Notes: generated by a model not told the origin, from the letters alone. A stretch of DNA of 41,043 bases from an uncultured Candidatus Saccharibacteria bacterium (GCA_964362215.1 CAYIDJ010000004.1:1-41043); one strand, 5' to 3'. Counted from the stretch's first letter, positions 4,044 through 34,287 are shown. Made by a program: numbers and translations.

Positions 4044-5435
4044 TTATTGGTGGCGAGATTTAATAAAAAGGCCAAGTTCCTGAAGTTGGGCAGGGGTGGC
4101 GGGGGTCGGGGCGTCCATAACGGCGGTGCGGCCGGCGCCGGTCATGGGAAAGGCCTGAACTTCGCGCAGGTAGGACTCCCCCGTCAGATTCATAAGATTG
4201 CGTTCCACTCCCAGAGCGATGCCGCCATGGGGCGGAGCGCCATAACGGAAGGCGGCAAGTATGTGGCCGACGCTATTCTCTATCTCCTGCGGAGAGTAGC
4301 CCATAACGCGGTAGGTGGCTTCCAGTATCTCGGGGCGGTGAGCGCGAATACTGCCGCCGCCGGACTCAAAGCCGTTGCAGACAAGGTCATATTGGGTGGT
4401 TAAAATCTCGGGTATGTTTTTACCGGCAAGATGGTCTGCTAAGAATTCCGGCTTAGGCATAGAGAATGGGTTGTGAGTAAAGGTCCAACTACCATTGTCG
4501 GCTTTTTCAAAAAAGGGGAAATCCACTACCCAGGCGTAAGCGAGGATGCCGGCGGCTTTTTCCGACTCGTTACGCAGGTCAAACTTGTCGGCGCCGAAGC
4601 GTTCCACAGCTTCCCGATAAGAGAAACGAGGAAATGGTTTTTCTTTTATCTTATATCCCATTGCTTCCACCACTTGGGTCATCATGATTTCTATCTCCAT
4701 AATCACGTCCTCGCGTTCAACAAAAGACATTTCTATGTCAATCTGGGTGTGTTCAAAGCCGCGGTCGGCGCGCAGGTCTTCGTCGCGGAGGGCGCGAGCA
4801 ATCTGAAAGTAGCGTTCAAAACCGGAAACCATCAGAAGCTGTTTGTACTGCTGGGGCGATTGCGGCAAGGCGTAGAACTTACCCGGATATTGGCGGGAAG
4901 GCACCAGAAAGTCGCGCGAGCCCTCGGGGGTGGATTTAGTCAGAAGCGGCGTTTCTATTTCCAAAAAGTCGCGGCGGAAGAGAAACTCGCGGCATTTTTG
5001 GACGAAGTCGCTGCGGAGACGAAGGTTGCGTTGCATACGCTCGGAGCGCAAGTCAAGATAGCGGTATTTGAGGCGAGTTTCCTCGTTGACGGCGGCGGTG
5101 TCTTGACGGGGATCAAAGGAGGGTGTTTCCGCGGAACTCAAAACCGCGATGGCTTCCGCTTTTACTTCCACCCGGCCGGTGGGAAGGTCGGGATTAATCA
5201 TATCGGCGGGGCGGTCTTTAACTGTTCCTTTTATTTCCAGCACCCACTCGGGACGGACGGTTTTGGCGGTTTCATAAGCGGAAGATTTGGGGTCAATGAC
5301 GATTTGAGCCACACCACTCCGGTCACGCAGGTCAAGAAAAATGAGTTTGCCATGGTCGCGGCGGGCGACTATCCAGCCGGAGAGTGTTATTGTCTCCCCT
5401 GTTTTAGCGGCTGTCTCTAAAACTAAAGTACGCAT
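4044..5435 (-). CDS. aspS: aspartate--tRNA ligase, bacterial-type sequence but lacking the GAD insertion domain
   Basis: 463 aa with an OB-fold N-terminus (LSGWIVARRDHGKLIFLDLRDRSG). Class II motifs are present: FRDEDLRADR-like LRDEDLRADR, FEHTQIDIEMSF, GGGSIR, PPHGGIALG. Only about 10 aa separate DKFDLRN from WVVDFPFFE. Confidence 0.93.
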   Translation of the reverse strand: MRTLVLETAAKTGETITLSGWIVARRDHGKLIFLDLRDRSGVAQIVIDPKSSAYETAKTVRPEWVLEIKGTVKDRPADMINPDLPTGRVEVKAEAIAVLSSAETPSFDPRQDTAAVNEETRLKYRYLDLRSERMQRNLRLRSDFVQKCREFLFRRDFLEIETPLLTKSTPEGSRDFLVPSRQYPGKFYALPQSPQQYKQLLMVSGFERYFQIARALRDEDLRADRGFEHTQIDIEMSFVEREDVIMEIEIMMTQVVEAMGYKIKEKPFPRFSYREAVERFGADKFDLRNESEKAAGILAYAWVVDFPFFEKADNGSWTFTHNPFSMPKPEFLADHLAGKNIPEILTTQYDLVCNGFESGGGSIRAHRPEILEATYRVMGYSPQEIENSVGHILAAFRYGAPPHGGIALGVERNLMNLTGESYLREVQAFPMTGAGRTAVMDAPTPATPAQLQELGLFIKSRHQ

Positions 5436-10648: not shown

Positions 10649-10903
10649 TTACTCCCGAGACTTCAACGGACGAGCTTCATTAACTTTGAGAGAGCGGCCG
10701 TCCAAATCCTGGCCATCCCACATCTCAATAGCTTTTTGCCCTTCCTCGTCGGTGTTAAACTCGACGAAGCCGAAGCCGCGAGAGCGGCCAGTCATCTTGT
10801 CAACAACCACAGTGGCGGACTGAACATCTCCGGCCTTAGAAAAGGCGCCGCGGAGAGAATCATCCGTCGTGGTGTACGACAGATTGCCAACGTAAAGCTT
10901 CAT
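10649..10903 (-). CDS. RRM-type RNA-binding protein
   Basis: 84 aa with KLYVGNLSY (RNP2) and RGFGFVEF (RNP1). Confidence 0.9.
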   Translation of the reverse strand: MKLYVGNLSYTTTDDSLRGAFSKAGDVQSATVVVDKMTGRSRGFGFVEFNTDEEGQKAIEMWDGQDLDGRSLKVNEARPLKSRE

Positions 10904-15036: not shown

Positions 15037-15104
15037 AAGTTAAGTTAAAAGCTAAAAGTCTATAAAGTCCATAAAGAAAACCTTAAAGACTTGTTTAATT
15101 TTAA

Positions 15105-15605: not shown

Positions 15606-15749
15606 AACAAATTAAATCCTAAATCCTAAACAAATTCAAAACTCAAAAGTTATAAATTCAAAATAAAATTTAGGAAGAAGGGTGAGGGGTTATTTATTTT
15701 TAGCTGCGATAGGAATCGCAGAGAAATAAATAAAAACGACCTTTATAGG

Positions 15750-15831
15750 CCGCAGATGGATACGAACGCTTTAAAAGCGAGTAGTCCTCGGCAGGAGATT
15801 AAGCCCTTATTTGGACACCTGCTGTCTGCGG
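15750..15831 (-). promoter_or_regulatory. structured 5' leader element of rplJL (candidate L10-leader analogue)
   Basis: Closing helix CCGCAGA/TCTGCGG encloses hairpins CGCTTT..AAGCG and GGCAGG..CCTGCT. It starts ~6 nt after the predicted TSS. A second long hairpin lies at 15699-15745. Confidence 0.35.
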
Positions 15832-15843
15832 ATTATGTTTAAG

Positions 15844-15872
15844 ATGATAGCAAAGCAGAAAAAGAATGTCAA
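15844..15872 (-). promoter_or_regulatory. candidate rplJL promoter TTGACA-17-TATCAT
   Basis: On the minus strand: TTGACA (15872-15867), 17 nt, TATCAT (15849-15844). Confidence 0.5.
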
Positions 15873-17299: not shown

Positions 17300-17327
17300 A
17301 TTATACAACTGCGTATTATTTTGTCAA
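17300..17327 (-). promoter_or_regulatory. near-consensus promoter TTGACA-16-TATAAT for the NUDIX gene
   Basis: On the minus strand: TTGACA (17327-17322, inside the last codons of map) and TATAAT (17305-17300). Confidence 0.55.
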
Positions 17328-18772: not shown

Positions 18773-18854
18773 CTTTGGCCGACGTTATTGCTATGTTGCC
18801 AGACGGCTAATTACCAAATTAAGAATGACGAATGACGAATTTTGGATTATGGAG

Positions 18855-20129
18855 TTAGTCGTAGGCGCGGATGGTGAGCTGGGACTCAACTTGGCGCATG
18901 GTTTCCAAGGCAACGGAGACAACAATTAAAAGAGAGGTACCGCCGATAGTCAGGAAAGAAAGATTGGGAAAAAATCCCTGGACAACTAAGGGTAAAACGG
19001 CGATGGCGCCGAGGAAGAGAGAGCCAAACAAAGTGGTGCGGTTGATAACTTTAGAAAGGAAGGAACTGGTTTGGTCGCCGGGGCGGAGGCCGGGAACGAA
19101 GCCGCCGGCCTGCTGGAGGTTTTTAGATATTTCTTTGGGATCAAAAGTAACGGCGGTGTAAAAGTAAGTAAAGACGACTACCAACACAAAATAAGCAAGA
19201 CCATAGAGAAGAAGATTATTGAAAAAGGCGTTAGCCCACCCATTTAAGACAAGGGAAACGGCGGGCGAGATTAGGACGGCCGCTTGCGCGATAAACTGCG
19301 GAAAGAGAAGGATAGAAATAGCAAAGATAATGGGAATAACGCCGGCTTGGTTGACCCGAAGCGGCAGATAGGTGGAGACGCCGCCATAAAGTTTGTTGCC
19401 GCGCACCCGACGGGCGTAAGAGACGGGAATTTTGCGCTCGCCTTCAGTAATAAAGACAACACCGCCGATAACGATTAAGGCGATGACTAAAAAGGCGATA
19501 ATGGCGGCCGGGTCAAGAGTGCCGCTTTGCAGAGAGAAGAAAGAGGCCTGAATCGCCTGCGGCAAACCAGAGACGATACCGGCAAGGATGATTAAAGAAA
19601 CGCCGTTGCCGAACTTGTATTCGGTGATGAGTTCCCCTATCCACATCAAGGCGATGGAGCCGGCAGTAACGATAAGAACATCAAAGAGGAGGGTGGACGG
19701 AGTCAGGTTGAAAAAGACACCGCGGGAATTAAGGAAGTTGATAAAACCGTAGGACTGAACGGCGGCCAGCGGCACGGTAATGAGACGGGAGAGACGGTTA
19801 AATTTGGCGCGGCCGATTTCGCCTTCTTCAAAATAAAGTTTTTTTAGATTGGGAAAAACGATAGTCAAAAGCTGCATTATGATGGTGGCAGTAATATAGG
19901 GACCGACACCAAGCATGACAATAGAAAGATTGGATAGTCCGCCGCCGGAGAAGAGGTTTAAGAAACCGAGCAGTTGACTGCCGGCAAGAAGCTCCTCCAG
20001 ACGGAGAACGTCCACACCGGGGACGGGAACGGCGGCCATAATGCGGAAAACAGCGAGAAGTCCGACGATAGCCAGCAGGCGGCGGCGAAGATCGCCAATT
20101 TTGAATATGTTGAGGGGGTTTATCATCAA
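18855..20129 (-). CDS. secY: preprotein translocase subunit SecY
   Basis: 424-aa polytopic ORF following rplO, with typical SecY segments (GVGPYITATIIMQLL, RKIPV..AR). Confidence 0.96.
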   Translation of the reverse strand: MMINPLNIFKIGDLRRRLLAIVGLLAVFRIMAAVPVPGVDVLRLEELLAGSQLLGFLNLFSGGGLSNLSIVMLGVGPYITATIIMQLLTIVFPNLKKLYFEEGEIGRAKFNRLSRLITVPLAAVQSYGFINFLNSRGVFFNLTPSTLLFDVLIVTAGSIALMWIGELITEYKFGNGVSLIILAGIVSGLPQAIQASFFSLQSGTLDPAAIIAFLVIALIVIGGVVFITEGERKIPVSYARRVRGNKLYGGVSTYLPLRVNQAGVIPIIFAISILLFPQFIAQAAVLISPAVSLVLNGWANAFFNNLLLYGLAYFVLVVVFTYFYTAVTFDPKEISKNLQQAGGFVPGLRPGDQTSSFLSKVINRTTLFGSLFLGAIAVLPLVVQGFFPNLSFLTIGGTSLLIVVSVALETMRQVESQLTIRAYD

Positions 20130-20162
20130 GAAGTTAAAAAATTAAAAATCAAATATAGGTGA

Positions 20163-22023: not shown

Positions 22024-22056
22024 AATTTAATCAAACTCTAAAAACTTTGAATTTTT

Positions 22057-22440
22057 CTACCAGATTTGGAAAAGATACTCACCGCCGATTTTTCCCCGAC
22101 GGGCATTCTCGGCCGTCATAATACCTTGGGAAGTGGAAACAATACCAAGGCCAAATCCCTGGCGAACCGGACGGAGAGAAGATGATTTAACGTAAACCTT
22201 TTTCCCGGGACGGCTTATAAACTTGGCGGTGGAAACACGCGGGGAACCATCGGTTTCATATTTCAAGACAACATCAAGTGTGCGCTTGACTCCCCGTCCG
22301 CGTTTAGTGATATCCCCGATAAAATCGGCTGAGCGCATAACTTCTAAAATAGCCAAATCTTTCTTACTAAAAGGAAGTCTGACTCGTTCTTTGCCAACAG
22401 CCTGGGCATTTTTAATTCTGATAATGAGGTCGGAATACAT
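22057..22440 (-). CDS. rpsH: 30S ribosomal protein S8
   Basis: DLIIRIKNA..., GGEYLFQIW C-terminus. Confidence 0.96.
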   Translation of the reverse strand: MYSDLIIRIKNAQAVGKERVRLPFSKKDLAILEVMRSADFIGDITKRGRGVKRTLDVVLKYETDGSPRVSTAKFISRPGKKVYVKSSSLRPVRQGFGLGIVSTSQGIMTAENARRGKIGGEYLFQIW

Positions 22441-22453
22441 ATAATTTTATTTG

Positions 22454-22639
22454 TTACCAGCTGGATTTTTTAATACCGGGGATTTTTCCTTGAGAAGCCA
22501 TTTCCCGAAAACAGATACGGCATAATCCGAAGTCGCGCATAAAGCCGCGTTTGCGACCGCAATGAAAACACCGATTGACACGTCGGGTGGAAAACTTTGG
22601 TTTTTTCTTCGCGCGAGCGATGACGGATTGTTTAGCCAT
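22454..22639 (-). CDS. rpsZ: 30S ribosomal protein S14 type Z (zinc form)
   Basis: 61 aa with CxxC..CxxC ([23 protein letters not shown]). Confidence 0.96.
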
Positions 22640-23126
22640 GTTTTAAAGGGAGGCGGCAGGCCTCATAGAAAGATAATGCTTTAGCGCGATCACGGGTTAT
22701 GGGGATAATGGATACCTCAAGACCAAAGGAAACACGCGACTCCTCGGGAATAATTTCCGGAAAGATGGACTTGTCTTTAATACCGATATTTAAGACACCA
22801 CCGCGGTCAATAGAATCGGGAGAGAGGCCGCGAAAGTCCTTGATACGAGGCAGTACTATATTAATCAAACGGCTCAAAAAATCAACCGCGTGCGAACCGC
22901 GGATGGTGGTGCGGATGCCGACTACCTGTCCAATGCGAAGTTTGAATCCGGAGATGGCCTGTTTAGAACGGATAACTTGTCCGCGCTGACCGGTAATTAA
23001 AATAATTTCTTTCAGGATTTCCGGCAGGAGACGATTTTCAAAATCTCCCTCCCGGCTGGAGAGGCGACCAAGACCGATATTAACGACAATTTTTTCCAGA
23101 TTATTTTTTATAAATGACTTTTCCAT
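22632..23126 (-). CDS. rplE: 50S ribosomal protein L5
   Basis: VVNIGLG..., ITGQ..., FRGLS and position in the operon. The N-terminus is short relative to typical L5. Confidence 0.93.
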
Positions 23127-23128
23127 AT

Positions 23129-23440
23129 TTACATTGCGGATTGGCAGCGGCGGCAGAATCTGACCTTTTGGCCGTTGGCAGTTTTGACACCAACACGAAC
23201 GCCACGACCGCAGCGGCCGCAGACAGGCATAACATTGGACAGATCAACACGGCGCGGGCGCTCCACAATCTGGCCGGACTCTCCCTGACGGCGAGGGCGA
23301 AGATGTTTTTTAATTAAATTAAGATTTTCCACCGTTAATTTGCCTAATTGAGGATAAAGGCGAACAACCTTACCGGTTTTACCCCGATCTTTACCGACTT
23401 TTATTTGGACAAAGTCGCTCTTTTTGACGCGCTGATACAT
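23129..23440 (-). CDS. rplX: 50S ribosomal protein L24 (with Cys4 knuckle)
   Basis: KKSDFVQIKVGKDRGKTGKV KOW motif. C-terminal CGRCG...CRRC. Confidence 0.95.
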   Translation of the reverse strand: MYQRVKKSDFVQIKVGKDRGKTGKVVRLYPQLGKLTVENLNLIKKHLRPRRQGESGQIVERPRRVDLSNVMPVCGRCGRGVRVGVKTANGQKVRFCRRCQSAM

Positions 23441-23471
23441 ATGGTGGTTAAACTCTAAATAATATTGAATC

Positions 23472-23840
23472 TTAAACGATTTCTTCGGCTAAGTTAGCAA
23501 TCTTATCAAAACCTTTTTCTTTCAACTCGCGCGGAATAGGACCAAAGATGCGGGTAGCGACCGGCTCACGCTTGGCGTCAATAATGACGGCGGCATTATC
23601 GTCAAAACGGACGCGGGTGCCGTCAATACGTTTGACGGCGCTGCGGGAACGGACGATGACCGCTTTTATTATGTCTTTCTTTTTCAGGTTCTTGCGCGGC
23701 TCGGCGACTTGAACGGAAGCAACAATAATATCGCCCAAGCGGGCGTAGCGGCGACGAGTGCCGCCCAAAACACGGAAGCACCGAATGATTTTGGCTCCGG
23801 AGTTGTCGGCTACTTTAATAATGGCTCGTTCCTGGATCAT
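23472..23840 (-). CDS. rplN: 50S ribosomal protein L14
   Basis: MIQERAIIKVADNSGAK...IFGPIPRELKEKGF. Confidence 0.97.
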   Translation of the reverse strand: MIQERAIIKVADNSGAKIIRCFRVLGGTRRRYARLGDIIVASVQVAEPRKNLKKKDIIKAVIVRSRSAVKRIDGTRVRFDDNAAVIIDAKREPVATRIFGPIPRELKEKGFDKIANLAEEIV

Positions 23841-23848
23841 ATATTTAT

Positions 23849-23879
23849 AAACTCTAAATCCTAAATTCTAAACTCTAAA
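23849..23879 (-). repeat. two copies of the recurrent intercistronic element (mRNA sense TTTAGAGTTTA)
   Basis: Plus-strand AAACTCTAAA occurs at 22033, 23450, 23849, 23870, 25584, 26481, 29697 and 33730. Seven of the eight copies lie 8-13 nt upstream of an r-protein start codon. Confidence 0.8.
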
Positions 23880-23899
23880 CAATATTGAAACTATTACTT

Positions 23900-24205
23900 T
23901 TACAAATTTTCGCCAACGGGCGGCTGATTTTCCGATTTAGCGGTGCGGCCGATGATGCGCCAGCGTTTAGCGCGCGATAAGGGGCGTGTCTCCTCAATTA
24001 TCACTTCGGAACCGACGGGATAGGCATTGTTGGCATCATGCGCTTTGAAGGAATGAGTGGAGCGGATGTATTTTCCATACTTGGGGTGGCGGTGAGTTCG
24101 GGAAACTGAAACTACGCGTGTTTTGTTCATGCGGTCAGAAATAACTACGCCGATGAGACGTCTTTTTAATTTAGGATTAGCGGTTTTAGCTGTAAGGGTG
24201 GACAT
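23900..24205 (-). CDS. rpsQ: 30S ribosomal protein S17
   Basis: GVVISDRMNKTRVVSV...HPKYGKY...HD. Confidence 0.95.
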   Translation of the reverse strand: MSTLTAKTANPKLKRRLIGVVISDRMNKTRVVSVSRTHRHPKYGKYIRSTHSFKAHDANNAYPVGSEVIIEETRPLSRAKRWRIIGRTAKSENQPPVGENL

Positions 24206-24216
24206 AATATATAAAA

Positions 24217-24426
24217 TTAACGAGCTGAGCGACTAAGTTCGGAAAGTTTTGTTTTAAGCCGTGCCACTTCTTTTTTGGCGGCGGTGATGGATTTGACGTT
24301 TTTAACCTTACCGCTCAAAAGATCAAAACGCATGGTTTGTAAAGCGTGCTCGCGTTCTTTTATCATCCGCTCCAGTTCGGCGGTCGGTTTGTCGGCCAGG
24401 GATATTATAAATTGTTTGCGTTTCAT
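24217..24426 (-). CDS. rpmC: 50S ribosomal protein L29
   Basis: 69 aa, coiled and basic, lying between rplP and rpsQ. Confidence 0.9.
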   Translation of the reverse strand: MKRKQFIISLADKPTAELERMIKEREHALQTMRFDLLSGKVKNVKSITAAKKEVARLKTKLSELSRSAR

Positions 24427-24436
24427 AAAAATATAG

Positions 24437-24850
24437 TTAGCGCTTGAAAATTATTTTGGTTTTGACGGGAAGCTTGTGGCCGGCGAGACGGAAAGCAGAA
24501 CGCGCGAGCGTTTCACTGACGCCATCCAATTCAAATAAGACGCGGCCGGGGCGGACAGGAAAAACATAATGGTCGACCGCTCCTTTACCGGAACCCATGG
24601 TTACTTCGGCCGGTTTTTTGGTGACAGGCTTGTCCGGAAAAACTCTAATCCAAAGCTTGCCTTCACGCTTGAGATGGTTGGTAATCGCCCGGCGAGCGGC
24701 TTCAATCTGATTGGAAGAAAGCCAAGAGCTAGCAAGCGACTGCAGACCGAACTTGCCGAAAGAAACGTCTCGGCCGCGGGTTTCAACTGTGCGTTTCCGA
24801 GAACGCCCTTTTTGCCACTTGCGGTGTTTAACTTTTTTAGGAATAAGCAT
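24437..24850 (-). CDS. rplP: 50S ribosomal protein L16
   Basis: [11 protein letters not shown]..., [14 protein letters not shown]. Confidence 0.97.
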
Positions 24851-24859
24851 AGGATTTGA

Positions 24860-25573
24860 TTAACTGATACGGCGTTCTGAAATTGACTTTGATTCCCGTG
24901 GCGCTGGAGCCGCGGATAAGAAAGCTACTTCGCCCTTATTGACCCAAACCTTTATACCAATAGTACCGAAGGTTGTAAAGGCAGTGGCTTCTCCGTATTC
25001 AATGTTGACGCGTAATGTTTGGAGAGGAATAGTGCCTTTAGCAAACCACTCACGGCGCGCGATTTCGGCGCCGTCCAGACGTCCGGCAACTTTGATTTTA
25101 ACGCCGCGGACGTCCCGCCCGTGCATGGCCTGGTCAATATATTTTTTGACCACCCGGCGAAAACGAAGACGTTTTTCCAAATCCCAAGCGATTTGTTGGG
25201 CAGTATGCGCGGCCGAAACATCATTGCGTTTTAACTCTTCAATATCCAAGTTTAAAGGCGGAGAAACGGATGGCGGTAATTTGAGTTTACTTAAGGCCTG
25301 ATTCAGCTGCTGGCGAAGGCGATTGATGCCCTCGCCGCCACGCCCGATAATAATACCCGGACGGGCGGCGCGAACAGTGACGCGGCAGCCGCCGGTAGTG
25401 CGGTCTATGGTAATTTCGGCAATGCCGCTTTGGTTTACTTCCCGGCGGATGACCCGGCGAATAGTTTCATCGGCCTCCAAAAAGGGCTGATAACTGCCTT
25501 TAAAGAACCAGCGTGAAATCCAAGATTTGGTGATTCCTAAGCGGAATGAGTCAGGTCTTATTTTTTGGCCCAT
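24860..25573 (-). CDS. rpsC: 30S ribosomal protein S3
   Basis: MGQKIRPDSFRLGI..., KH domain GIIIGRGG, and RREW..G. Confidence 0.97.
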   Translation of the reverse strand: MGQKIRPDSFRLGITKSWISRWFFKGSYQPFLEADETIRRVIRREVNQSGIAEITIDRTTGGCRVTVRAARPGIIIGRGGEGINRLRQQLNQALSKLKLPPSVSPPLNLDIEELKRNDVSAAHTAQQIAWDLEKRLRFRRVVKKYIDQAMHGRDVRGVKIKVAGRLDGAEIARREWFAKGTIPLQTLRVNIEYGEATAFTTFGTIGIKVWVNKGEVAFLSAAPAPRESKSISERRIS

Positions 25574-25603
25574 AATATAATATAAACTCTAAACAAATTT
25601 GAA

Positions 25604-26134
25604 TTAGATGCTTTTACGGCGGAAGAATCTTCGGAAGACGCCGCTCTTCTCGCTTTCGGGAATAACTTCTTTGCCGGAAGGCGGAAGAATATGTTTAGCG
25701 GACGATTTGGATTTGGTTTTAGTAACGGCAGCAGATTCTTTTTTATGCTTAGACTCGCGACGAGGAGGAGGAATGATGGTAAAGGCAGGTTTTATTTTAT
25801 CATTTTCCGACAAGATTACCGTAACAATGGAAGTGCGTTTTAAAATCGGGGAGGCGGAGCCGCGGGCACGAGGCATAAAACGTTTTAACATACGTCCGCC
25901 GTCAACAGTTATTGTTTTAATATACAGGCGGGCGGCGGCGGCAGATTGGTTGTGAGTAGCGTCAGCCACGGCGGAACGAACTAGTTTTAAGAGAGGGACG
26001 GAGGAGCGCTCGCGACTAAACATAAGTTCGGCTTCAGCGGCCGAAATGGAAAGGCCGCGCAGGCGGTCAGCAACCAACCGCACTTTGCGGGGAGCGATAC
26101 GCAGATTTCTTAAAATGGCGCGTTGGGTAATCAT
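25604..26134 (-). CDS. rplV: 50S ribosomal protein L22 with ~65-aa Lys/Ser-rich C-terminal extension
   Basis: Core LRIAPRKVRLVADRLRG...RARGSASPILKRTSIVTVIL, followed by an extra tail. Total 176 aa. Confidence 0.94.
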   Translation of the reverse strand: MITQRAILRNLRIAPRKVRLVADRLRGLSISAAEAELMFSRERSSVPLLKLVRSAVADATHNQSAAAARLYIKTITVDGGRMLKRFMPRARGSASPILKRTSIVTVILSENDKIKPAFTIIPPPRRESKHKKESAAVTKTKSKSSAKHILPPSGKEVIPESEKSGVFRRFFRRKSI

Positions 26135-26136
26135 GG

Positions 26137-26472
26137 TTATTTCTTATTTTGGTTGGGGGCGGAAGCGGGACTGCCGGCGGCGGTTTCTTGAGCTTTCTTT
26201 TCTAATTCTTTTTGGATTTTACCGCCATGGCGGATAAATTTGCGAGTAGGAGAAAATTCACCCAAATGGTGGCCGACCATGTCTTCCACAACCCGTACTT
26301 CTATAAAATTCTTGCCGTTATGGACGGCAAAAACGTGGCCGATCATTTCAGGAGATACTTCCGAAGAGCGCGACCAAGTTTTAATAACCGTTTCGCCGGG
26401 GTTGGTGACAGCGGCAACTTTTTTGAGCAGACGCGGGTCAACGAAAGGGCCTTTTTTTAGTGAACGAGACAT
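26137..26472 (-). CDS. rpsS: 30S ribosomal protein S19
   Basis: [11 protein letters not shown]..., VHNGK, GEF.PTR. Confidence 0.97.
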
Positions 26473-26502
26473 ATATTATTAAACTCTAAACAATGGTAAT
26501 TT

Positions 26503-27336
26503 TTAACTTTTACGGCGGCGGCGGGAAGAAATAATAAGAGCCGAGGACGACTGTTTTCGGTGGCGGGTACGGCGGCCGCCAGTAATGTTGCCCCAGATGT
26601 CTTTGGGACGCTTGGTGCCGCGCTGGGTTTGACCTTCACCGCCGCCGTAGGGATGGTCAACTGGATTCATAGCCGAACCGCGAACGGTGGGGCGGATGCC
26701 TAAGTGGCGGGAACGGCCGGCGTTGCCGATAACAACCAAGTTGTTTTCGGGATTGCTGGCGCGGCCGACGGTAGCAAATCCGTCAGAGAGAATCTTGCGC
26801 ACCTCGCCGGAGGGGAGTTTTAAGTTGGTGTATTTACCTTCTTGGGCGGACACTTCAACATAAGAGCCGGCCGAACGTGCTAATTGACCGCCGCGGCCGG
26901 GAGAAAGTTCGGCATTAAAAACTTGATAACCAACGGGAATGTTTTTGAGCGGCAGGCGGTTGCCGGAAGTAAGAGGGGCATCAAGAGAAGTGATGACCCT
27001 ATCCCCTACTTTAGCATCGGACCAAGCCAGAACATAAGAACGTCCGCCGTTGTCATAAACCAAGCGGGCGATAAAGGCCGTGCGATAGGGATCATATTCT
27101 ATGGCTTCAACGCGCGCCGGCAGATTGAGTTTGGATTGCTTGAAGTCAATTAAGCGATAAAGTTTTTTGTGTCCGCCGCCTTGGTGGCGCACAGTGATGC
27201 GTCCCTGGGAGTTGCGGCCGGAGTGAGACTTCAAGTGGACGGTCAAACGTCTAAAGGGACGAGATACAGAAATCGGCGACAGGTCAGTGACAGTCATCTG
27301 CCGGCGGCCGGGGGTTACTGGTTTAAATTTCTTCAT
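26503..27336 (-). CDS. rplB: 50S ribosomal protein L2
   Basis: MKKFKPVTPGRR start at 27336 (the track's 27378 extension is unlikely). GNR.P, MNPVDHPYGGGEG. Confidence 0.97.
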   Translation of the reverse strand: MKKFKPVTPGRRQMTVTDLSPISVSRPFRRLTVHLKSHSGRNSQGRITVRHQGGGHKKLYRLIDFKQSKLNLPARVEAIEYDPYRTAFIARLVYDNGGRSYVLAWSDAKVGDRVITSLDAPLTSGNRLPLKNIPVGYQVFNAELSPGRGGQLARSAGSYVEVSAQEGKYTNLKLPSGEVRKILSDGFATVGRASNPENNLVVIGNAGRSRHLGIRPTVRGSAMNPVDHPYGGGEGQTQRGTKRPKDIWGNITGGRRTRHRKQSSSALIISSRRRRKS

Positions 27337-27346
27337 AGAATAAATA

Positions 27347-27628
27347 CTACTGGGAAATAATATCAATGTGGTCGCCATCTTTGACGGTAACGACCGCTTT
27401 TTTAATCTTGCTTTTTTTGACCGAAGACCGGAAGCGAAATTTGGTGGCGGGGCGGGGGCGGTTTAAAACATTAACGGATACCACTTTGACGCTGTATATT
27501 TTTTCAATGGCCTGTTTAATTGATGGTTTGGTAGCATTGCCGTCAACGACAAACACATACTGGTTGTGGTGGGACAGATCGCCAGCCTTTTCAGTAATAT
27601 GGGGGTGTTTGATTAGAAGATTGTTCAT
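27347..27628 (-). CDS. rplW: 50S ribosomal protein L23
   Basis: HPHITEKA..., VFVVDGNATKPSIKQAIEKIY.VKV. Confidence 0.95.
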   Translation of the reverse strand: MNNLLIKHPHITEKAGDLSHHNQYVFVVDGNATKPSIKQAIEKIYSVKVVSVNVLNRPRPATKFRFRSSVKKSKIKKAVVTVKDGDHIDIISQ

Positions 27629-28305
27629 AAAACAATTTTCATTTGGGGTGATTTGCTTCGCAAATTTTTATCAGAAGAGGCAGTCAGAGCGGAAAAATCA
27701 GCAACGGCGGAGCGTTCCATTAGCAGCTGGCGGCGAGAGGATATGTCATAAACATTCAAAGAAGCCGGCGAAGAAGTAATAATATTGGAAATATTGCGCG
27801 CGCCGCGGACAAGGCCGGATTTAGCGTCACGACCGGATATTAATATGGCGCTGGGGAAAGGGCGGTGGAAATTTTTAACAAGGAAAGAGATGACACTCTT
27901 GGTTTGGCCGTCCGAAGGAAGAGATTCAAAAACCTTGAGATCACCATCGGTCAGGCGCTTAGAAAGAAGGGAGAAAAGAGCTGCCTGCTTTTGTTTTTTA
28001 TTTATTTTCTGGGTGTAAGAACGCTCGGAAGTCGGTCCGTGAGAAACGCCGCCGCCAGCCCAAATAGGAGAACGGCTGGAACCGTGGCGGGCGCGACCGG
28101 TTCCCTTTTGACGCCAGGGTTTGCGGCCGCCACCACGCACTTCGCCCCGTCCTTTGGTGTGAGCCAGGGGCTCGCGGGCATTGGCGCGATGAGCGAGAAT
28201 AGCAAAATGAACCAAAGTCGGATTCCAGGCAACGCCGAAGATGGTATCCGGAAGTTCTACAGCGCCAACGGTTTTACCTTCAATATTGTAAAGCGGAGTG
28301 TTCAT
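27625..28305 (-). CDS. rplD: 50S ribosomal protein L4
   Basis: KGRGEVRGGGRKPWRQKGTGRARHGS motif. ATGA overlap with rplW. Confidence 0.96.
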   Translation of the reverse strand: MNTPLYNIEGKTVGAVELPDTIFGVAWNPTLVHFAILAHRANAREPLAHTKGRGEVRGGGRKPWRQKGTGRARHGSSRSPIWAGGGVSHGPTSERSYTQKINKKQKQAALFSLLSKRLTDGDLKVFESLPSDGQTKSVISFLVKNFHRPFPSAILISGRDAKSGLVRGARNISNIITSSPASLNVYDISSRRQLLMERSAVADFSALTASSDKNLRSKSPQMKIVL

Positions 28306-28311
28306 AGCGCA

Positions 28312-28935
28312 TTAATTAGATTTATTTTCTTTGGCGGAAGCCGATTCTCCGCCCAAGGCGGAGGCAAGGCGACGAATAGTCAAAAGAGTGCGGCGATTAC
28401 CGGGAACGGCGCCTTTGATTAAAAGTTCGCCGGCGTCTGGATTTACCGCGATAACGGTTAAGTTTTTAATCGTGATCTTGCGTCCGCCCATACGGCCGCC
28501 CATGCGCATTCCTTTAAAAACCCGCTGGACGCCGCCGGCGCCGATAGAGCCAGGGGCGCGCAGGCGGTCTTTGGTGCCATGCGTTTTTTTAGAGCCGGCG
28601 AAGCCGTGCCTTTTAACAACTCCTTGAAAGCCCTTACCGATAGAAAGACCGGAAACAGAGATGTTGTCCCCGGGAGAAAAATCAGATACGGAAACGACGC
28701 GTCCCGCTTTTATTTCTTCCGGAAGAGAGGAAAGAAGGCGGAATTCGCGGTGGACGCGGCGGCGGCCGACGGGAGCGGAGGCAGAAAGGCGGACAGCGAT
28801 GTAGCCATCGCGTTCTTTGGTACGAATAAGGTCAATTTTATTGGGAGCGGCCTTAATAACAGTCACGGGAATGACCTTTTCATCTTTCCACACTTGAGTC
28901 ATGCCGGTTTTCTTGCCGAGGATAAATGCTTCCAT
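28312..28935 (-). CDS. rplC: 50S ribosomal protein L3
   Basis: ILGKKTGMTQVW..., KGFQGVVKRHGF.G....HG. Confidence 0.96.
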   Translation of the reverse strand: MEAFILGKKTGMTQVWKDEKVIPVTVIKAAPNKIDLIRTKERDGYIAVRLSASAPVGRRRVHREFRLLSSLPEEIKAGRVVSVSDFSPGDNISVSGLSIGKGFQGVVKRHGFAGSKKTHGTKDRLRAPGSIGAGGVQRVFKGMRMGGRMGGRKITIKNLTVIAVNPDAGELLIKGAVPGNRRTLLTIRRLASALGGESASAKENKSN

Positions 28936-29046
28936 AAATTTTACATATGTTCCGGCATAAAAAGAAGAGGGATGTCCCCTCCTCGCCAGAAGAGAGTTTT
29001 CTCTCTTCCCGCTTTAAATTCCGGGAACCGTATGTAAGATAGGGAT

Positions 29047-29076
29047 ATTGTAACTTATGGGGGGTGGATTTGTCAA
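29047..29076 (-). promoter_or_regulatory. candidate internal promoter TTGACA-18-TACAAT ahead of rplC
   Basis: On the minus strand: TTGACA (29076-29071) and TACAAT (29052-29047), the same hexamers as the tuf promoter. The ~105-nt leader carries hairpins GAAGAGAG/CTCTCTTC and GAGGG/CCCTC. Confidence 0.4.
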
Positions 29077-29117
29077 AGAGAGACTCGCCATATCAAAACA
29101 GGAAGTTGGTGTATTTA

Positions 29118-29214
29118 GAAAAAGCTTCCTTTCGAGACACGGGTATTTTTTTGCTAAAAAATCCCTCTAACTCGCACCGTCGTGCTCCGCGCGGTCTCGA
29201 AAGGAAGCTTTTTC
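29118..29214. repeat. perfect 21-bp inverted repeat GAAAAAGCTTCCTTTCGAGAC / GTCTCGAAAGGAAGCTTTTTC with 55-nt loop
   Basis: Arms at 29118-29138 and 29194-29214 are exact reverse complements, located in the rpsJ-rplC spacer. Confidence 0.9.
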
Positions 29215-29289
29215 TTCATAAATGATGCATAGAAGGAGGTTTTGATGTGGGCTCGCTAGGGTTGGTGGAGGAAGATTCACGTGTAATTG

Positions 29290-29316
29290 CAAAACTCCCC
29301 TTAAGGGGGAGTTTTG
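29290..29316. terminator. palindromic terminator-like hairpin just after rpsJ
   Basis: CAAAACTCCCC-TTAA(G)-GGGGAGTTTTG. A GC core is flanked by A4/T4, so it is usable on either strand. Confidence 0.5.
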
Positions 29317-29335
29317 ATAAATGTTTGGAGGGCGG

Positions 29336-29683
29336 TTACGCGCGGGCGCCAGTGCCGAGTCCGGTCTTAATTTCAATATCAATGCCGGCGGGAAGATTCA
29401 GGTTAGAGAGGGATTCAATAATTTCTTTATTGGGGTTTAAGATGTCAATAAGACGTTTGTGAATGCGAAGTTCAAACTGCTCACGGGCGGTTTTGTGGAC
29501 AAAGGTGGAGCGGTTGACCGTGTATTTTTTGAATTCGGTGGGAAGAGGAATGGGGCCAACGATGTCGGCATTATGACGTTTGGCGGTTTCAATAATCTGG
29601 CGGCAGGAGTTGTCAACCAGTCGGTGATCGTAGCCGCGCACCCGCAGGCGGAGAAATTCAGCTTGACTTTTTTTAACGGCCAT
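29336..29683 (-). CDS. rpsJ: 30S ribosomal protein S10
   Basis: LRLRVRGYDHRLVD.S...IV..A......GPIPLPT...YTV.RS.....S.EQFE.R.HKRLIDI. ATG 29683 is preferred over the TTG at 29698. Confidence 0.96.
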   Translation of the reverse strand: MAVKKSQAEFLRLRVRGYDHRLVDNSCRQIIETAKRHNADIVGPIPLPTEFKKYTVNRSTFVHKTAREQFELRIHKRLIDILNPNKEIIESLSNLNLPAGIDIEIKTGLGTGARA

Positions 29684-29753
29684 ATTCAGAATAATCAAAC
29701 TCTAAACCCTAAATAATGTCAAAATTCAAAATTATAAACTCAAAACGAATTGA

Positions 29754-30953
29754 TTATTTGACAATTTTAGTAACAACGCCGGCGCCGACAGTGCGTCCGC
29801 CCTCACGGATAGCAAAGCGCTGTTGTTCTTCCAGAGCGACCGGTGAGATAAGGGAAACCTTGAAGGTGATGGTGTCTCCGGGCATGACCATTTCCGTGCC
29901 TTCCGGAAGTTCAACCGAGCCGGTAACATCGGTGGTGCGGATATAGAACTGCGGCTTATAACCCTTAAAGAAAGGAGTGTGCCGTCCGCCTTCCTCTTTG
30001 GTTAAGACATAAACTTCGGCTTCAAAATCGGTGTGAGGAGTAACGGAGCCGGGCTTGGACAGCACCTGACCGCGCTCAATATCTTCCTTTTTGAGACCGC
30101 GCAAGAGGATGCCAACGTTGTCGCCAGCCTGGCCGGAGTCCAGTGTTTTGTTAAACATCTCAATGCCGGTAACGACAGCTTTTTGAGTGTCGCGAAGGCC
30201 AATGACTTCAATTTCTTCATTGGCGTTGACGACTCCCCTTTCAATGCGGCCGGTGGCAACGGTGCCGCGGCCTTCAATGGAAAAGATATCTTCAACCGGC
30301 ATCAGAAAGGGCTTATCAATTTCACGCTTGGGTTCGGGGATATAAGTGTCAAGTTTTTCCACCAGTTCCAGAATCGGTTTGGCGGCTTCATCATCGGCAG
30401 AAGCGGCCTCTAAGGCCTTAAGAGCCGAACCGCGGATAACAGGAGCGTTATCGCCGTCAAATTTATACTTTTTAAGAAGTTCACGAACCTCGGATTCAAC
30501 TAAATCAATGAGCTCGGGGTCGTCTACCTGGTCAACTTTGTTGATAAAAACAATAACATTAGGCACGCCGACTTGGTGGGCAAGTAAGATGTGCTCGCGC
30601 GTCTGCGGCATCGGGCCGTCGGTGGCGGCCACGACTAAAATAGCTCCGTCCATCTGGGCCGCGCCGGTAATCATGTTCTTAATGTAGTCAGCGTGGCCGG
30701 GAGCGTCAACGTGCGCGTAGTGGCGCTTGGCGGACTCATATTCGGAGTGGTGAAGAGCAATAGTAATACCGCGGGCTTTTTCCTCGGGGGCGTTGTCAAT
30801 CTGGTCAACCCTTTCCTCTTTCTTGGTCCAGCCTTTGAGGAAGAGAATGTGAGTAATAGCCGCGGTCAGCGTGGTTTTGCCGTGGTCGACGTGACCAATG
30901 GTGCCGACATTGATGTGCGGCTTGGAACGATTAAATTTTTCTTTTTCGGCCAT
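29754..30953 (-). CDS. tuf: elongation factor Tu
   Basis: [22 protein letters not shown], and full-length similarity pattern over 399 aa. Confidence 0.99.
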
Positions 30954-31004
30954 AGTAAAAAAATAGTTGATTAATAATAATAGCGAAAACGATCAGACTT
31001 GGTT

Positions 31005-31033
31005 AATTGTAGAGGGAGATGCTTTTAATGTCA
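31005..31033 (-). promoter_or_regulatory. near-consensus promoter TTGACA-17-TACAAT upstream of tuf
   Basis: On the minus strand: TTGACA (31033-31028) and TACAAT (31010-31005). The -35 box lies inside hairpin GAGGGAG..CTCCCTC (31011-31040). Confidence 0.5.
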
Positions 31034-31054
31034 ACTCCCTCAAACTGTCTATGG

Positions 31055-33160
31055 TCATTTTCGGCCGGCAATGATTTCTAGTTCAACGTTTTTAGGCGCC
31101 GGCTCATAGGCGAAGAATTCCATAGTGAAGTTGCCGCGGCCTTGGCTTAGAGAACGCAGTTTGGTGGCATAACCGAACATTTCGGAAAGCGGCACTTTGG
31201 CGTCAATGACCTTTATTCCTCCTTCGCGGTCTTCCATGGATTCAATCTGGCCACGTTTGGAGTTAAGGTCGCCGGTGGCATCGCCTAAAAATTCGGCCGG
31301 CACGATAACTTGCACTTTCATAATCGGTTCAAGCAAAATCGGCCGGGCGGACTTAGCGGCGGAAGAGAAAGCCATAGAAGCGGCTATTTTGAAAGCGGCT
31401 TCCGAGGAGTCAACTTCGTGATAGGAACCGTCGTAGAGAGTAACTTCAACGTCAACGACCGGAAAACCGGCGACGACACCCTTACTTAAGGCTTCTTTGA
31501 CGCCTTTCTCCACAGCGGGGATAAACTCGTTTGGAATAGAGCCACCTTTAATGGCGTTGGTAAACTCAAAGCCGGAGCCGCGTTCCCGCGGGGCGACGCG
31601 CAGCCGGACATGGCCGTACTGGCCGCGGCCGCCGGACTGTTTGATATACTTACCCTCGCCTTCGGAGGAAGCGGAAACAGTTTCTTTATAAGCGACCTGC
31701 GGGCGGCCAACAGTGGCGGTTACGCCGAACTCGCGTTTCATGCGTTCCACCAGTATTTCCAGATGCAACTCGCCCATACCGGCGATAATGGTTTCACCGG
31801 TTTCAATGTTACCCGAGACACGGAAAGTGGGGTCCTCTTCCGCCAGGCGGTGAAGAGCTAAACCCATTTTCTCCTGGTCGGCTTTAGTTTTAGGTTCAAC
31901 TTTGACGCTGATAACCGGGTCGGGAAAATCAATTTTTTCCAAGAGGAGCGGGTGGTCGGGATCGCAGAGAGTGTCGCCGGTAGTGGTGTCTTTGGCGCCG
32001 ACTAAGGCGCCGATGTCGCCGGCACAGATTTCGTCCGCTTCTTCGCGCTGGTTGGCGTGCAGACGGACAATACGGCCAACCCGTTCCTGTTTGTCCTTGC
32101 TGGCATTTAAGATATAACTGCCTTTTTTAAAAACACCCGCGTAGACGCGGAAGAACACTAAACTGCCGACGTAGGGGTCGGTGGCCACTTTGAAAGCCAG
32201 CGCGGCCAGCGGCGCGGAGTCGTCGGCGGTGATTAAAATTTCTTGGTCGGTTTTCGGATTAACGGCTTTGACGGGAGGGACTTCAACCGGAGAAGGCAGG
32301 TAGTCAATGACGGCATCTAAAATAAGCTGAACGCCTTTGTTTTTGAGAGCGCTGCCGCAGAGCACCGGAATGAGTTTGCCCTCGATGGTGGCGCGGCGGA
32401 GGACCCGTTTTAAGTCGGCTAGTTCCGGTTCACGGCCTTCCAGATACAACTCCAGCAGTTTTTCATCCTGCTCCACTATTTTTTCAATAAGTCGCGCGCG
32501 GTAGGATTCCACTTCGCCGGTAAGATTGGCGGGAGTATCAATTTTTTCCAAATGCTCACCAAAATCGCCGCTAAAGCCGTAGGCCTGGCGCTCAAAAAGG
32601 TCAATAACGCCGGAAAAAGCCGATTCACTGCCGATAGGAATCTGAATGGGAATAGCCCGTTTAGAAAGACGACTATGAATAGAAGCTAAGCTTTTTTCAA
32701 AACTCGCGCCCAGGCGGTCAAGTTTGTTGATAAAACAAAGGCGAGGCACGTTGTATTTGTCGGCCTGACGCCAGACGGTCTCCGATTGGGGCTCAACACC
32801 GGCTACGCCGTCAAAGACAACCACGCCTCCGTCTAACACGCGCAGAGAACGTTCCACTTCCACGGTGAAATCAACATGACCGGGGGTGTCAATAAGGTTA
32901 ATGCGATGTTCGTAATTTTTGTCGCTGCCATGGGAGGTGGGAATCCAGAAGCAGGTGGTGGCGGCAGAGGTGATAGTAATCCCCCGCTCCCGTTCCTGCT
33001 CCATCCAGTCCATAATAGCCGCGCCTTCGTGCACTTCGCCGATTTTGTGAGAAATGCCGGTATAAAAAAGGATGCGCTCGGAAACGGTGGTTTTGCCAGC
33101 GTCAATGTGAGCGATAATGCCGATATCACGAACTCTGTCAATTGGGTATTGGCGAGGCAC
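31055..33160 (-). CDS. fusA: elongation factor G
   Basis: 701 aa with GTG start. [22 protein letters not shown] and EF-G domain IV/V motifs. Confidence 0.99.
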
Positions 33161-33224
33161 GTTAAAAATTTAAAGTTTAAATATTAAAATATAAAATCAG
33201 AGAAGAAAAAAAGAGGAGACGCGG

Positions 33225-33719
33225 TTAAAAGCTAACTTTCTTTTTCTTGGTAAAACGGGCGAAGTGAGCGAAGGCGCGATTGGCTTCCGCCATTTTGTGG
33301 GTGTCAGCTTTCTTTTTGATGGCGGCGCCGGCGTTGTCGGAAGCGGCCATCAGTTCCTCGGCTAAACGAGAAGCGATAGGCATGCCTTTTTTGGAGCGGG
33401 CGGCGTTCAAAATCCAGCGAACAGCGAGGATGAAACGGCGGTCAAGACGGACCTCAATCGGAATCTGATAGTTGGCGCCGCCGACGCGGCGGCTGGCAAG
33501 TTCCACGGCGGGAGAGACGTTTTCAATCGCTTTATCAAATACAGCTAAAGGGTCGCTGCTGGTTTTGGCCTTGATAATATCCAAGGCGCGGTAAAAGGCG
33601 CGTTCGGCAACTGTTTTCTTGCCGTTTTTCATAATGGCATTAATGAAACGGCCGACGTCCACACGCTGGTAGACGGGGTCGGGAAGATAGTGTTTTCGGT
33701 AAACGCGCTTTTTACGCAT
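33225..33719 (-). CDS. rpsG: 30S ribosomal protein S7
   Basis: DPVY...V..FIN.IM..GKK..AE..FY.A, VGGANYQIP.EV. Confidence 0.97.
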   Translation of the reverse strand: MRKKRVYRKHYLPDPVYQRVDVGRFINAIMKNGKKTVAERAFYRALDIIKAKTSSDPLAVFDKAIENVSPAVELASRRVGGANYQIPIEVRLDRRFILAVRWILNAARSKKGMPIASRLAEELMAASDNAGAAIKKKADTHKMAEANRAFAHFARFTKKKKVSF

Positions 33720-33776
33720 AGACAGTATTAAACTCTAAACAATATCAAAACTCAAAATCATAAATTCAAATATGAA

Positions 33777-34190: not shown

Positions 34191-34287
34191 GTTAAAAGAT
34201 TAAAATTTAAAAATCAAAATGAAAAATGACTAATAACTACTTGATAACTAATAATCAAACAAATAGCGGAAGTTTCCGCAGTGTTTA

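Follow-up and report, generated by a model that had tools for sequence, protein, structure and literature searches.

The ribosomal-protein (r-protein) cluster on a 41,043-nt contig (CAYIDJ010000004.1:1-41043, assembly GCA_964362215.1, deposited as an uncultured Candidatus Saccharibacteria bacterium) carries a repeated U-rich element at the Shine-Dalgarno (SD) position of its genes. We refer to this whole stretch as the window. The element, which is specific to its lineage, is a cassette of about 21-33 nt made of heptanucleotide direct repeats, (UUUAGAG)n, with flanks, and it lies just upstream of SD-less start codons. The data call for a sequence-specific constraint on the sense strand, 5' of the SD-less starts of co-transcribed translation genes, and this constraint is most economically read as that of a translation-initiation cassette. 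We therefore suggest that the element supports SD-independent initiation and is recognized sequence-specifically by a single-strand RNA binder, a reading to which we give a probability of roughly 0.45, a little short of even odds.

The exact 10-mer AAACTCTAAA (plus strand) occurs eight times in the 41-kb window (starting at 22033, 23450, 23849, 23870, 25584, 26481, 29697 and 33730), where 0.15 occurrences are expected, and none of 100 dinucleotide-preserving shuffles reached eight. The str/S10/spc-type r-protein cluster is encoded on the minus strand, and in the mRNA sense all eight copies read UUUAGAGUUU; every one of them lies inside an intercistronic spacer of minus-strand r-protein genes. 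This recount reproduces the copies and coordinates given in an initial annotation of the same DNA, and its placement of the copies in spacers agrees with our gene map, in which gene identities were confirmed by Pfam and by gene calls on public copies of the contig. The near-fixed distance of a reused A/U-rich element from SD-less starts, proposed there for rplF, rplX, rplN, rpsC, rpsS, rpsJ and rpsG, was the same when re-measured: the start-proximal motif ends 8-13 nt 5' of the ATG at these seven genes and, counting rplJ, at eight. The eighth exact copy is the distal one in the rplN spacer, 29 nt from the ATG, and the true start of rpsJ is the ATG at 29683 rather than the TTG of the longest open reading frame (ORF). 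Degenerate copies reported before rplJ and in the tuf-rpsJ and rpsL-rpsG spacers are present. In addition, rpsL, fusA and secY are preceded by a weaker U-rich variant, UUUUGAUUUUUAAAUUUUUAAC ("family B"), which has UUU-GA-UUU in common with the main motif. The sites are listed below, with folding given as z-scores against dinucleotide shuffles.

22024-22056, minus strand: S8-L6 cassette of 33 nt; core UUUAGAGUUU at 22033-22042, ending 9 nt before the rplF ATG; unstructured (z = -0.04).
23441-23471, minus strand: L14-L24 cassette of 31 nt; core at 23450-23459, ending 9 nt before the rplX ATG (z = +0.41).
23841-23899, minus strand: S17-L14 spacer of 59 nt (z = -0.01); 4.7 heptamers at 23848-23880 in the order UUUAGAG UUUAGAA UUUAGGA UUUAGAG UUUA, with exact cores at 23849 and 23870, of which the one nearer the rplN ATG ends 8 nt before it; the spacer also holds a 38-nt block identical to a block of the relative L006.
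25574-25603, minus strand: L22-S3 cassette of 30 nt; core at 25584-25593, ending 10 nt before the rpsC ATG.
26473-26502, minus strand: L2-S19 cassette of 30 nt; core at 26481-26490, ending 8 nt before the rpsS ATG (z = +0.97).
29684-29753, minus strand: tuf-S10 spacer of 70 nt; proximal cores UUUAGGGUUUAGAGUUU at 29697-29713, ending 13 nt before the rpsJ ATG (29683); distal UUUUGAR heptamers at 29719-29745, with only a weak G-U hairpin (z = -0.8).
33720-33776, minus strand: S12-S7 spacer of 57 nt; exact core at 33730-33739, ending 10 nt before the rpsG ATG, and degenerate copy UUUUGAGUUU at 33748-33757.
15606-15680, minus strand: rplJ 5' region, between the Rfam L10 leader (15722-15849) and the ATG; 2.6 copies of UUUAGGA (15613-15630) and 4.6 copies of the UUUUGAA type (15632-15664), the last ending 8 nt before the ATG; the arrays and the upstream UCCUAAAUUUUA form a hairpin in which UCCUAAA pairs with UUUAGGA (dG -17.3, z = -2.09).
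34191-34260, minus strand: rpsL 5' region; family B variant UUUUGAUUUUUAAAUUUUAAUCUUUUAAC, ending directly at the GTG start, with a canonical promoter upstream.
33161-33224, minus strand: S7-fusA spacer; U-rich period-14 array at 33166-33195, family B-like, ending in uuuuaacGUG as does the rpsL 5' region.
20127-20162, minus strand: L15-secY spacer; family B element uuugauuuuuaauuuuuuaacuucuug before the ATG at 20126, kept at the orthologous L006 junction.
15037-15104, minus strand: rplJ-rplL spacer; degenerate U-rich periodicity of about 7 nt (gacuuua uagacuu uuagcuu uuaacuu), not matched by the core.

Matches with up to two mismatches fall 7 nt apart, a periodicity that the initial annotation had overlooked. 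The unit is UUUAGAG, with the variants UUUAGAA, UUUAGGA and UUUUGAR (in DNA, TTTAGAG, TTTAGAA, TTTAGGA and TTTTGAR). Tandem Repeats Finder (TRF) reported period-7 arrays of 4.7 copies before rplN, 2.6 and 4.6 copies before rplJ and 3.9 copies in the tuf-rpsJ spacer, where the heptamers before rpsJ form arrays of 2 and 3.9 copies. Tandem copies of UUUAGAG range from 1.4 to 4.7 per site, with 1.4 at most sites. At four junctions the heptamer is set in markedly uniform cassettes of 30-33 nt, (a)UUCAAuAUUGUUUAGAGUUUAauauuau, and the 30-nt cassettes consist of 1.4 exact heptamer copies plus degenerate flanking heptads. The annotation's description of a 21-nt element thus holds for a reused A/U-rich unit and not for a unique 21-nt sequence, the object being a tandem heptamer direct repeat. 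Likewise, of the longer extended copies it described, the 20-mer AAACTCTAAACAATATTGAA is exact once, before rplN, while the remaining copies correspond to its 5' half and differ from it there at 1-3 positions. The cassettes have a GC content of 13-26% in a window of 48% GC, are T-skewed, and fold no better than dinucleotide shuffles (z -0.2 to +1); the rplJ 5' region is the sole structured site.

To describe the distribution of the element, we used the 46 genes of the 41-kb window, which is the scope of all distribution statistics given here. The degenerate core UUU[AU]G[AG][AGU]UUU (UUUWGRDUUU) occurs 21 times in sense and 4 times in antisense orientation, with 0.7 expected from shuffles that keep local composition, and all but one of the sense cores fall in nine 5' spacers of translation genes. 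A core lies within 45 nt upstream of 9 of the 26 translation-apparatus genes and of none of the 20 other genes (Fisher p = 0.003), so that within the window the enrichment is restricted to translation-apparatus cistrons. Spacer lengths in the operons are bimodal: junctions without a cassette overlap or measure at most 18 nt, and those with a cassette measure 30-59 nt. As far as the available material could test it, the annotation's proposal of a reused element stands, the motif being enriched over shuffled sequence, start-proximal and present in the closest relative.

The cassette shares several properties with an SD site. Short, conserved and single-stranded in the mRNA, it keeps a narrow spacing of 8-13 nt from the start, is strongest at highly expressed genes, and falls on the mRNA strand in the interval of about 5-13 nt upstream expected of an SD. 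In contrast to an SD site, it has no sequence complementary to the CCUCC core, it abounds in U where an SD is rich in purines, and it is a 7-nt tandem repeat. The annotation had noted no GGAGG-like SD at these genes, and duplex energies with the canonical anti-SD ACCUCCUUA agree, reaching only -2.4 to -4 kcal/mol. SD-like sites were found at 3 of the 46 window genes, no more than background. At SD distance, strong AAGGAGG/AAGGGGG sites precede three ORFs without a Pfam match (80, 216 and 116 aa; starts at 1257 on the plus strand and at 16738 and 35622 on the minus strand). The anti-SD may still work, or these ORFs may have been imported recently or may not be genes at all.

The spacing also bears on a pairing explanation, in which the motif would be a new SD equivalent that pairs with a diverged 16S tail (AAACUCUAAA-like) after loss of CCUCC, or the target of a trans-acting small RNA. 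The SD-like distance, single-strandedness and exact 10-mer conservation fit it, one partner could serve both families through the common UUU-GA-UUU, and SD use in the window is at background. A CCTCCT anti-SD motif has been detected in only 48% of Parcubacteria (PMC9297842), leaving about half of that group without it. A scan of 185,579 GTDB species genomes for GTCGTAACAAGGTA-N18-42-AACTCTAAA, representing a 16S end with AACTCTAAA 18-42 nt beyond it, returned one match, which is not an rRNA gene, and so gave no support for a 16S 3' tail complementary to UUUAGAGUUU; neither the window nor about 210 fetched loci contained a 16S gene. Three window genes have perfect AAGGAGG-type sites at the right spacing, no complementary copy of the motif exists anywhere in the 41 kb, and the different heptamers of related lineages (below) would demand hypervariable 16S tails. 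We therefore regard pairing with an RNA partner as quite unlikely. The sequence UUUGAGUUU resembles the complement of 16S positions 907-915, a region buried in helix 27 and the central pseudoknot. The antisense strand of the motif resembles boxA, which places that resemblance on the wrong strand.

Other known element classes were also considered. Sigma-70 promoters, sought as hexamers resembling TTGACA and TATAAT with 16-18 nt between them, lie with 11-12 of 12 matches (TTGACA-N17-TAnAAT) upstream of rpsL, tuf, rplC and rplJ, and another lies at 17327. Because the operons have their own canonical promoters elsewhere, the cassettes are internal cistron junctions and not promoters; one weak 9/12 match overlaps a cassette, that of rpsC. 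A terminator or a hairpin of the repetitive extragenic palindromic (REP) or REPIN type was rejected for the window cassettes, which fold like their shuffles and occur on one strand (8 of 8 exact and 21 of 25 degenerate copies). At gathering score, Rfam covariance models matched the L10 leader and three tRNAs in the window and nothing at the cassettes. The element thus belongs to none of these: an SD, a promoter, a terminator, a REP-type hairpin or an Rfam family. Viral contigs scanned for TTGTTTAGAGTTTAA gave single chance-level matches, and no contig had several copies. Among sequencing runs, the window sequence was matched by four DNA runs of the same groundwater study and by no RNA run.

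Several neighboring features were recorded along the cluster. Both rpsL and fusA start with GTG and carry an identical uuuuaacGUG there (33161-33165 and 34191-34195, minus strand). The L10 leader scores 54.4 bits against a gathering score of 44 (15722-15849, minus strand) and includes a terminator-like hairpin at 15753-15736. No rplK-rplA precedes the rplJ-rplL pair, and hpf and secA come after it in place of rpoBC. An unusually long gap of 400 nt (28936-29335, minus strand) separates rpsJ from rplC. It contains a promoter (TTGACA-18-TACAAT, 29076-29047), a 27-nt inverted repeat (29112-29138 and 29194-29220, 93% complementary) and terminator-like hairpins, and may be an uncharacterized leader or attenuator of the rplC operon. 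In the secY-adk spacer (18823-18840, minus strand), 2.6 copies of a different heptamer, ATTCGTC, follow directly after the secY stop; this unit resembles the ATTCGCA and TTCGTAN families that fill the spacers of a Liptonbacteria relative, L009.

We next consider the organism and its relatives. Contigs identical to the window occur in 0.1-um-filtered Hainich groundwater metagenomes. The L30 gene is absent between S5 and L15. The window organism belongs to the Parcubacteria within the candidate phyla radiation (CPR), its nearest named homologues being from Candidatus Liptonbacteria and Paceibacterota. Among the loci fetched, the exact motif was found outside the window in one relative only, L006/L007, whose r-proteins are 82.8% identical to those of the window at the amino-acid level and whose 797 four-fold sites are 55.7% identical. 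The two genomes together hold 11 exact copies, all in sense orientation. The block ATTGTTTAGAGTTTAGAATTTAGGATTTAGAGTTTATA is identical at 38 of 38 positions in L006 (P about 2e-10 at the neutral rate), and the order of heptamer variants is kept exactly across 44% neutral divergence. The same junctions bear cassettes in both genomes (S19, S3, L14, L24, L6 and secY). The 38-nt block itself lies upstream of S3 in L006 and of L14 in the window, and family A (UUUAGAG) and family B (UUUUGAU) are swapped at four of the six common junctions.

In the relatives that come next by S3 identity (72%, 67% and 64%), the fully syntenic L212 among them, junctions are compact and A-rich, of the form uaaNNaccAUG, with neither a cassette nor an SD. 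These cassette-free junctions place the gain of the cassettes in the ancestor shared by the window organism and L006; sequence-specific constraint has preserved them since, even as they were reshuffled from junction to junction. In L006, the L14-L24 and S8-L6 spacers (2809-2936 and 4349-4519) have a composite element of about 130 nt in common, in which a small GC hairpin, aaccgattcttatcggtt, joins an A-rich heptamer arm to a U-rich family B arm that abuts the ATG; it looks like a dispersed inverted-repeat module. In L002, a replicate assembly of the same population, rplV (1969-2553; 25604-26134 in the window) encodes a longer L22 (194 vs 176 aa), and the alignment breaks there, as it would if about 54 nt had been inserted or duplicated within the gene.

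The same comparison raises the question of whether the cassettes are non-adaptive repeat DNA, born by slippage or spreading by gene conversion or in the manner of REPs and miniature inverted-repeat transposable elements (MITEs), and tolerated in compact operons; on this view, the 38-nt block would be identical because it spread or was transferred recently. No class of long simple-sequence repeats is commoner in bacteria than heptanucleotides, which have been attributed to polymerase slippage (Mrazek 2007, cited in PMC4679880). The repeat unit is lineage-specific with several families per genome, the identical block occupies a different junction in each genome, cassettes are missing from close outgroups, and the family B element of L006 is the 3' arm of the inverted-repeat elements at two junctions. 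Given compact ancestral junctions, proximity to a start codon would also be automatic. However, sense orientation holds for all 11 exact copies of the two genomes and for 21 of 25 degenerate cores, single arms are the U-rich, start-proximal arm, and the same set of junctions is occupied in both genomes. Heptamer copy number does not differ among three replicate assemblies of the population or between L006 and L007, in what is a small sample; slippage and spread would also have to accommodate the exactly conserved variant order. Moreover, the 30-nt cassettes have no terminal inverted repeats, and no target duplications surround them. On balance, we consider a purely non-adaptive origin somewhat unlikely.

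To place the cassettes among r-protein spacers more generally, we surveyed 811 kb from 91 sources. Most were r-protein clusters from metagenomic relatives, and a few duplicated each other. A metagenome scan with L14 returned mostly distant relatives (55-66% identity), which inform the general pattern and not the history of this motif. Non-coding tandem arrays numbered 74 with period 7 and 32 with period 14, compared with about 10 for any other period. Spacer autocorrelation peaked at lags 7 and 14, and coding DNA showed the usual 3-nt period. Period-7 arrays were concentrated in L30-lacking, CPR-like loci, and the heptamer differed by lineage: TTATGCG, AAATTAC and TAGTGAT in L068, YTGTTYA in L022, TTTTTAG in L044, CAACTAA in L090, and ATTCGCA, TTCGTAN and TAATTAC in L009. 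A 68-nt-period repeat was seen in the r-protein region of L013, with four copies and two more 9 kb away (2547-2760 and 11739-11812).

In many of these spacers, two inverted arrays form long hairpins (dG -30 to -50). Inverted heptamer pairs with near-perfect hairpins (dG -30 to -53) were seen in L068, L022, L044, L020, L013, L025, L029 and L070, and in L068 a GGAG-type SD and then an ATG lie 3' of the heptamer hairpin. Where r-protein junctions were well defined, the upstream stop codon marks the beginning of paired arrays (median 0 nt), and single arrays adjoin the start codon (median 7 nt). Folding strengthens with spacer length (median z 0.2 at 30-49 nt, -2.1 at 50-99 nt and -4.8 at 100-250 nt), and the stop-proximal 25 nt are A-richer than the start-proximal 25 nt in 63 of 94 spacers. 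The window cassettes are the one-armed, unstructured, start-proximal form of this period-7 array architecture.

These hairpins are relevant to RNA processing or stability, another role that the initial annotation had put forward. AG↓UUU stretches in the cassettes could be sites of the RNase E/G/Y type and the heptamer hairpins of relatives RNase III sites, so that polycistronic mRNA would be cut into units. The A/U-rich, unstructured sequence suits such a role, as do the long, near-perfect stems in relatives, and AGUUU resembles the RNase E preference RN↓WUU. Cleavage alone, however, leaves the exact conservation of 38 nt and the 7-nt period unexplained, and cleavage sites need no fixed distance from an AUG, which makes this role very unlikely. 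The annotation had named an SD-independent enhancer, an S1 or r-protein binding site and an RNase site as possible functions. An SD-less, start-proximal element is borne out, with all three as candidate functions.

Under the initiation reading that we favor, the cassette would fill r-protein junctions too long for stop/start coupling, in place of an SD site. On the polycistronic mRNA it would present an unstructured U-rich stretch punctuated by G and ending 8-13 nt before the AUG. The binder would most likely be a ribosome-associated protein with an OB fold or of the RRM type, such as bS1 or a cold-shock protein (Csp)-like protein, with one module contacting about one heptamer; once bound, it would load the 30S subunit at the adjacent start without pairing between SD and anti-SD. 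In two-armed versions, such as that of rplJ here and those common in relatives, the complementary arm located after the upstream stop codon would mask the U-rich arm. For initiation, an upstream ribosome that terminates, or a regulator, would then be needed, which would amount to translational coupling. We infer both the role in initiation and the identity of the binder from these features.

Several points weigh against this scheme. Its translational role is deduced from position, and the positional argument is weakened by the tiny ancestral junctions, in which any insert is automatically near both a stop and a start. The highly expressed first cistrons tuf and rplC have no element, and the distribution of the motif is known from 41 kb of the genome. 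Known S1 binding is weakly sequence-specific, a poor fit to identity at 38 of 38 positions, and heptamers that differ wholly between lineages are not obviously explained by a universal factor such as S1. A binder of heptamers is itself a hypothetical component. The window does encode a single-strand RNA binder, an 84-aa protein with a single RRM_1 domain (10649-10903, minus strand, E = 3.5e-22); to name it as a candidate reader of the U-rich heptamers is pure speculation.

A binder might also act negatively. In this explanation the cassette would be the operator of a translational repressor or coordinate regulator, with a free r-protein, a Csp or the RRM protein at 10649-10903 blocking or tuning r-protein initiation. 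Restriction to translation genes fits such an operator, as does the RRM_1 protein encoded in the window, and a dedicated binder explains sequence-specific constraint better than A/U richness does. Sites occur at the rpsL-rpsG junction and in the rplJ leader, which are places of r-protein feedback in E. coli. A heptamer footprint has been described for CspB (PMC4679880). Yet the binder is hypothetical here as well, rplC and tuf are without the element, and a purely negative element leaves ribosome recruitment at SD-less starts unexplained. We therefore consider an operator function unlikely.

A bolder version of the initiation reading can be drawn for the lineage as a whole. A Parcubacteria lineage that no longer uses SD:anti-SD pairing might have a fast-evolving 7-nt mRNA code, read by a diverged 16S tail or by a modular RNA binder, with the stop-anchored arm as a coupling switch; the arrays in L30-lacking operons would be the visible sign that these bacteria have a general alternative way to initiate translation. 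We regard this as a long shot.

The closest known parallel is the TAACTGA heptamer repeats of Beggiatoaceae, some Cyanobacteria and Bacteroidetes (MacGregor 2015, PMC4679880). These lie a few nucleotides upstream of SD-less starts, including internal sites of r-protein operons; S1, Csp or CsrA have been proposed as binders, CspB binds one heptamer per protein, and their function is only proposed (PMC4679880). Both elements are tandem 7-nt units (2-6 copies for TAACTGA; at least two copies are also found here) with one G per unit. Both lie over the expected ribosome-binding site within a few to about 25 nt of starts where an SD is rare, and at internal r-protein operon junctions (fusA, L3, S4 and S1 in the TAACTGA case). 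However, the unit here is UUUAGAG and not UAACUGA, the phylum is Parcubacteria/CPR, and most sites hold 1.4 copies in a conserved cassette of about 21-30 nt. The window motif precedes translation genes only, whereas TAACTGA precedes all gene classes. The heptamer also changes by lineage here, and inverted pairs in relatives form hairpins; in a Beggiatoaceae genome, one indirect repeat was found against 169 direct sets (PMC4679880). The window element thus consists of heptamer direct repeats that abut SD-less starts, as TAACTGA does, with a different unit, phylum and gene set, and the hairpin pairs of its relatives have not been described for TAACTGA.

Other parallels are looser. S1-dependent A/U-rich enhancers and SD-independent initiation are known from the E. 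coli rpsA leader, phage leaders, and the SD-poor Bacteroidetes and Cyanobacteria, and such enhancers show little sequence specificity. The cassettes resemble them in sequence properties, being unstructured A/U-rich stretches directly upstream of SD-less AUGs at which S1 binding is putative, and differ in their periodic sequence and in a 38-nt block that is exact across the same 44% neutral divergence. Heptanucleotide repeats of the short tandemly repeated repetitive (STRR) type were reportedly described in cyanobacteria by Mazel in 1990. Like these and other long simple-sequence repeats, the cassettes are tandem heptamers with species-specific units in mostly non-coding DNA; those repeats have not been described at start codons or in r-protein operons, however, and are regarded as products of slippage or as markers for typing. 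REP/REPIN and MITE-like palindromes are likewise lineage-specific, multi-copy and intergenic, and the inverted pairs of relatives form comparably long hairpins, whereas the window cassettes are one-armed, unstructured, in one orientation, built of 7-nt units and located inside essential operons. We know of no association of the cassettes with a RAYT or a transposase. A search of the accessible literature found neither such an element nor a replacement signal for the anti-SD described in CPR bacteria.

The dominance of period 7 and the stop-anchored inverted pairs in CPR-like r-protein spacers may be new, and they offer a simple model of coupling without an SD. If the cassettes are non-functional, they would still serve as markers of slippage or gene-conversion dynamics in minimal genomes. 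The link between CPR bacteria and TAACTGA repeats suggests that start-adjacent heptamer arrays are either a recurrent solution or a recurrent by-product in SD-poor bacteria. For the way in which CPR ribosomes find start codons, the heptamer cassette offers a testable candidate for SD-independent initiation: it is constrained in sequence, is placed at the SD position of r-protein cistrons, and was gained in one lineage whose relatives have compact operons free of cassettes.

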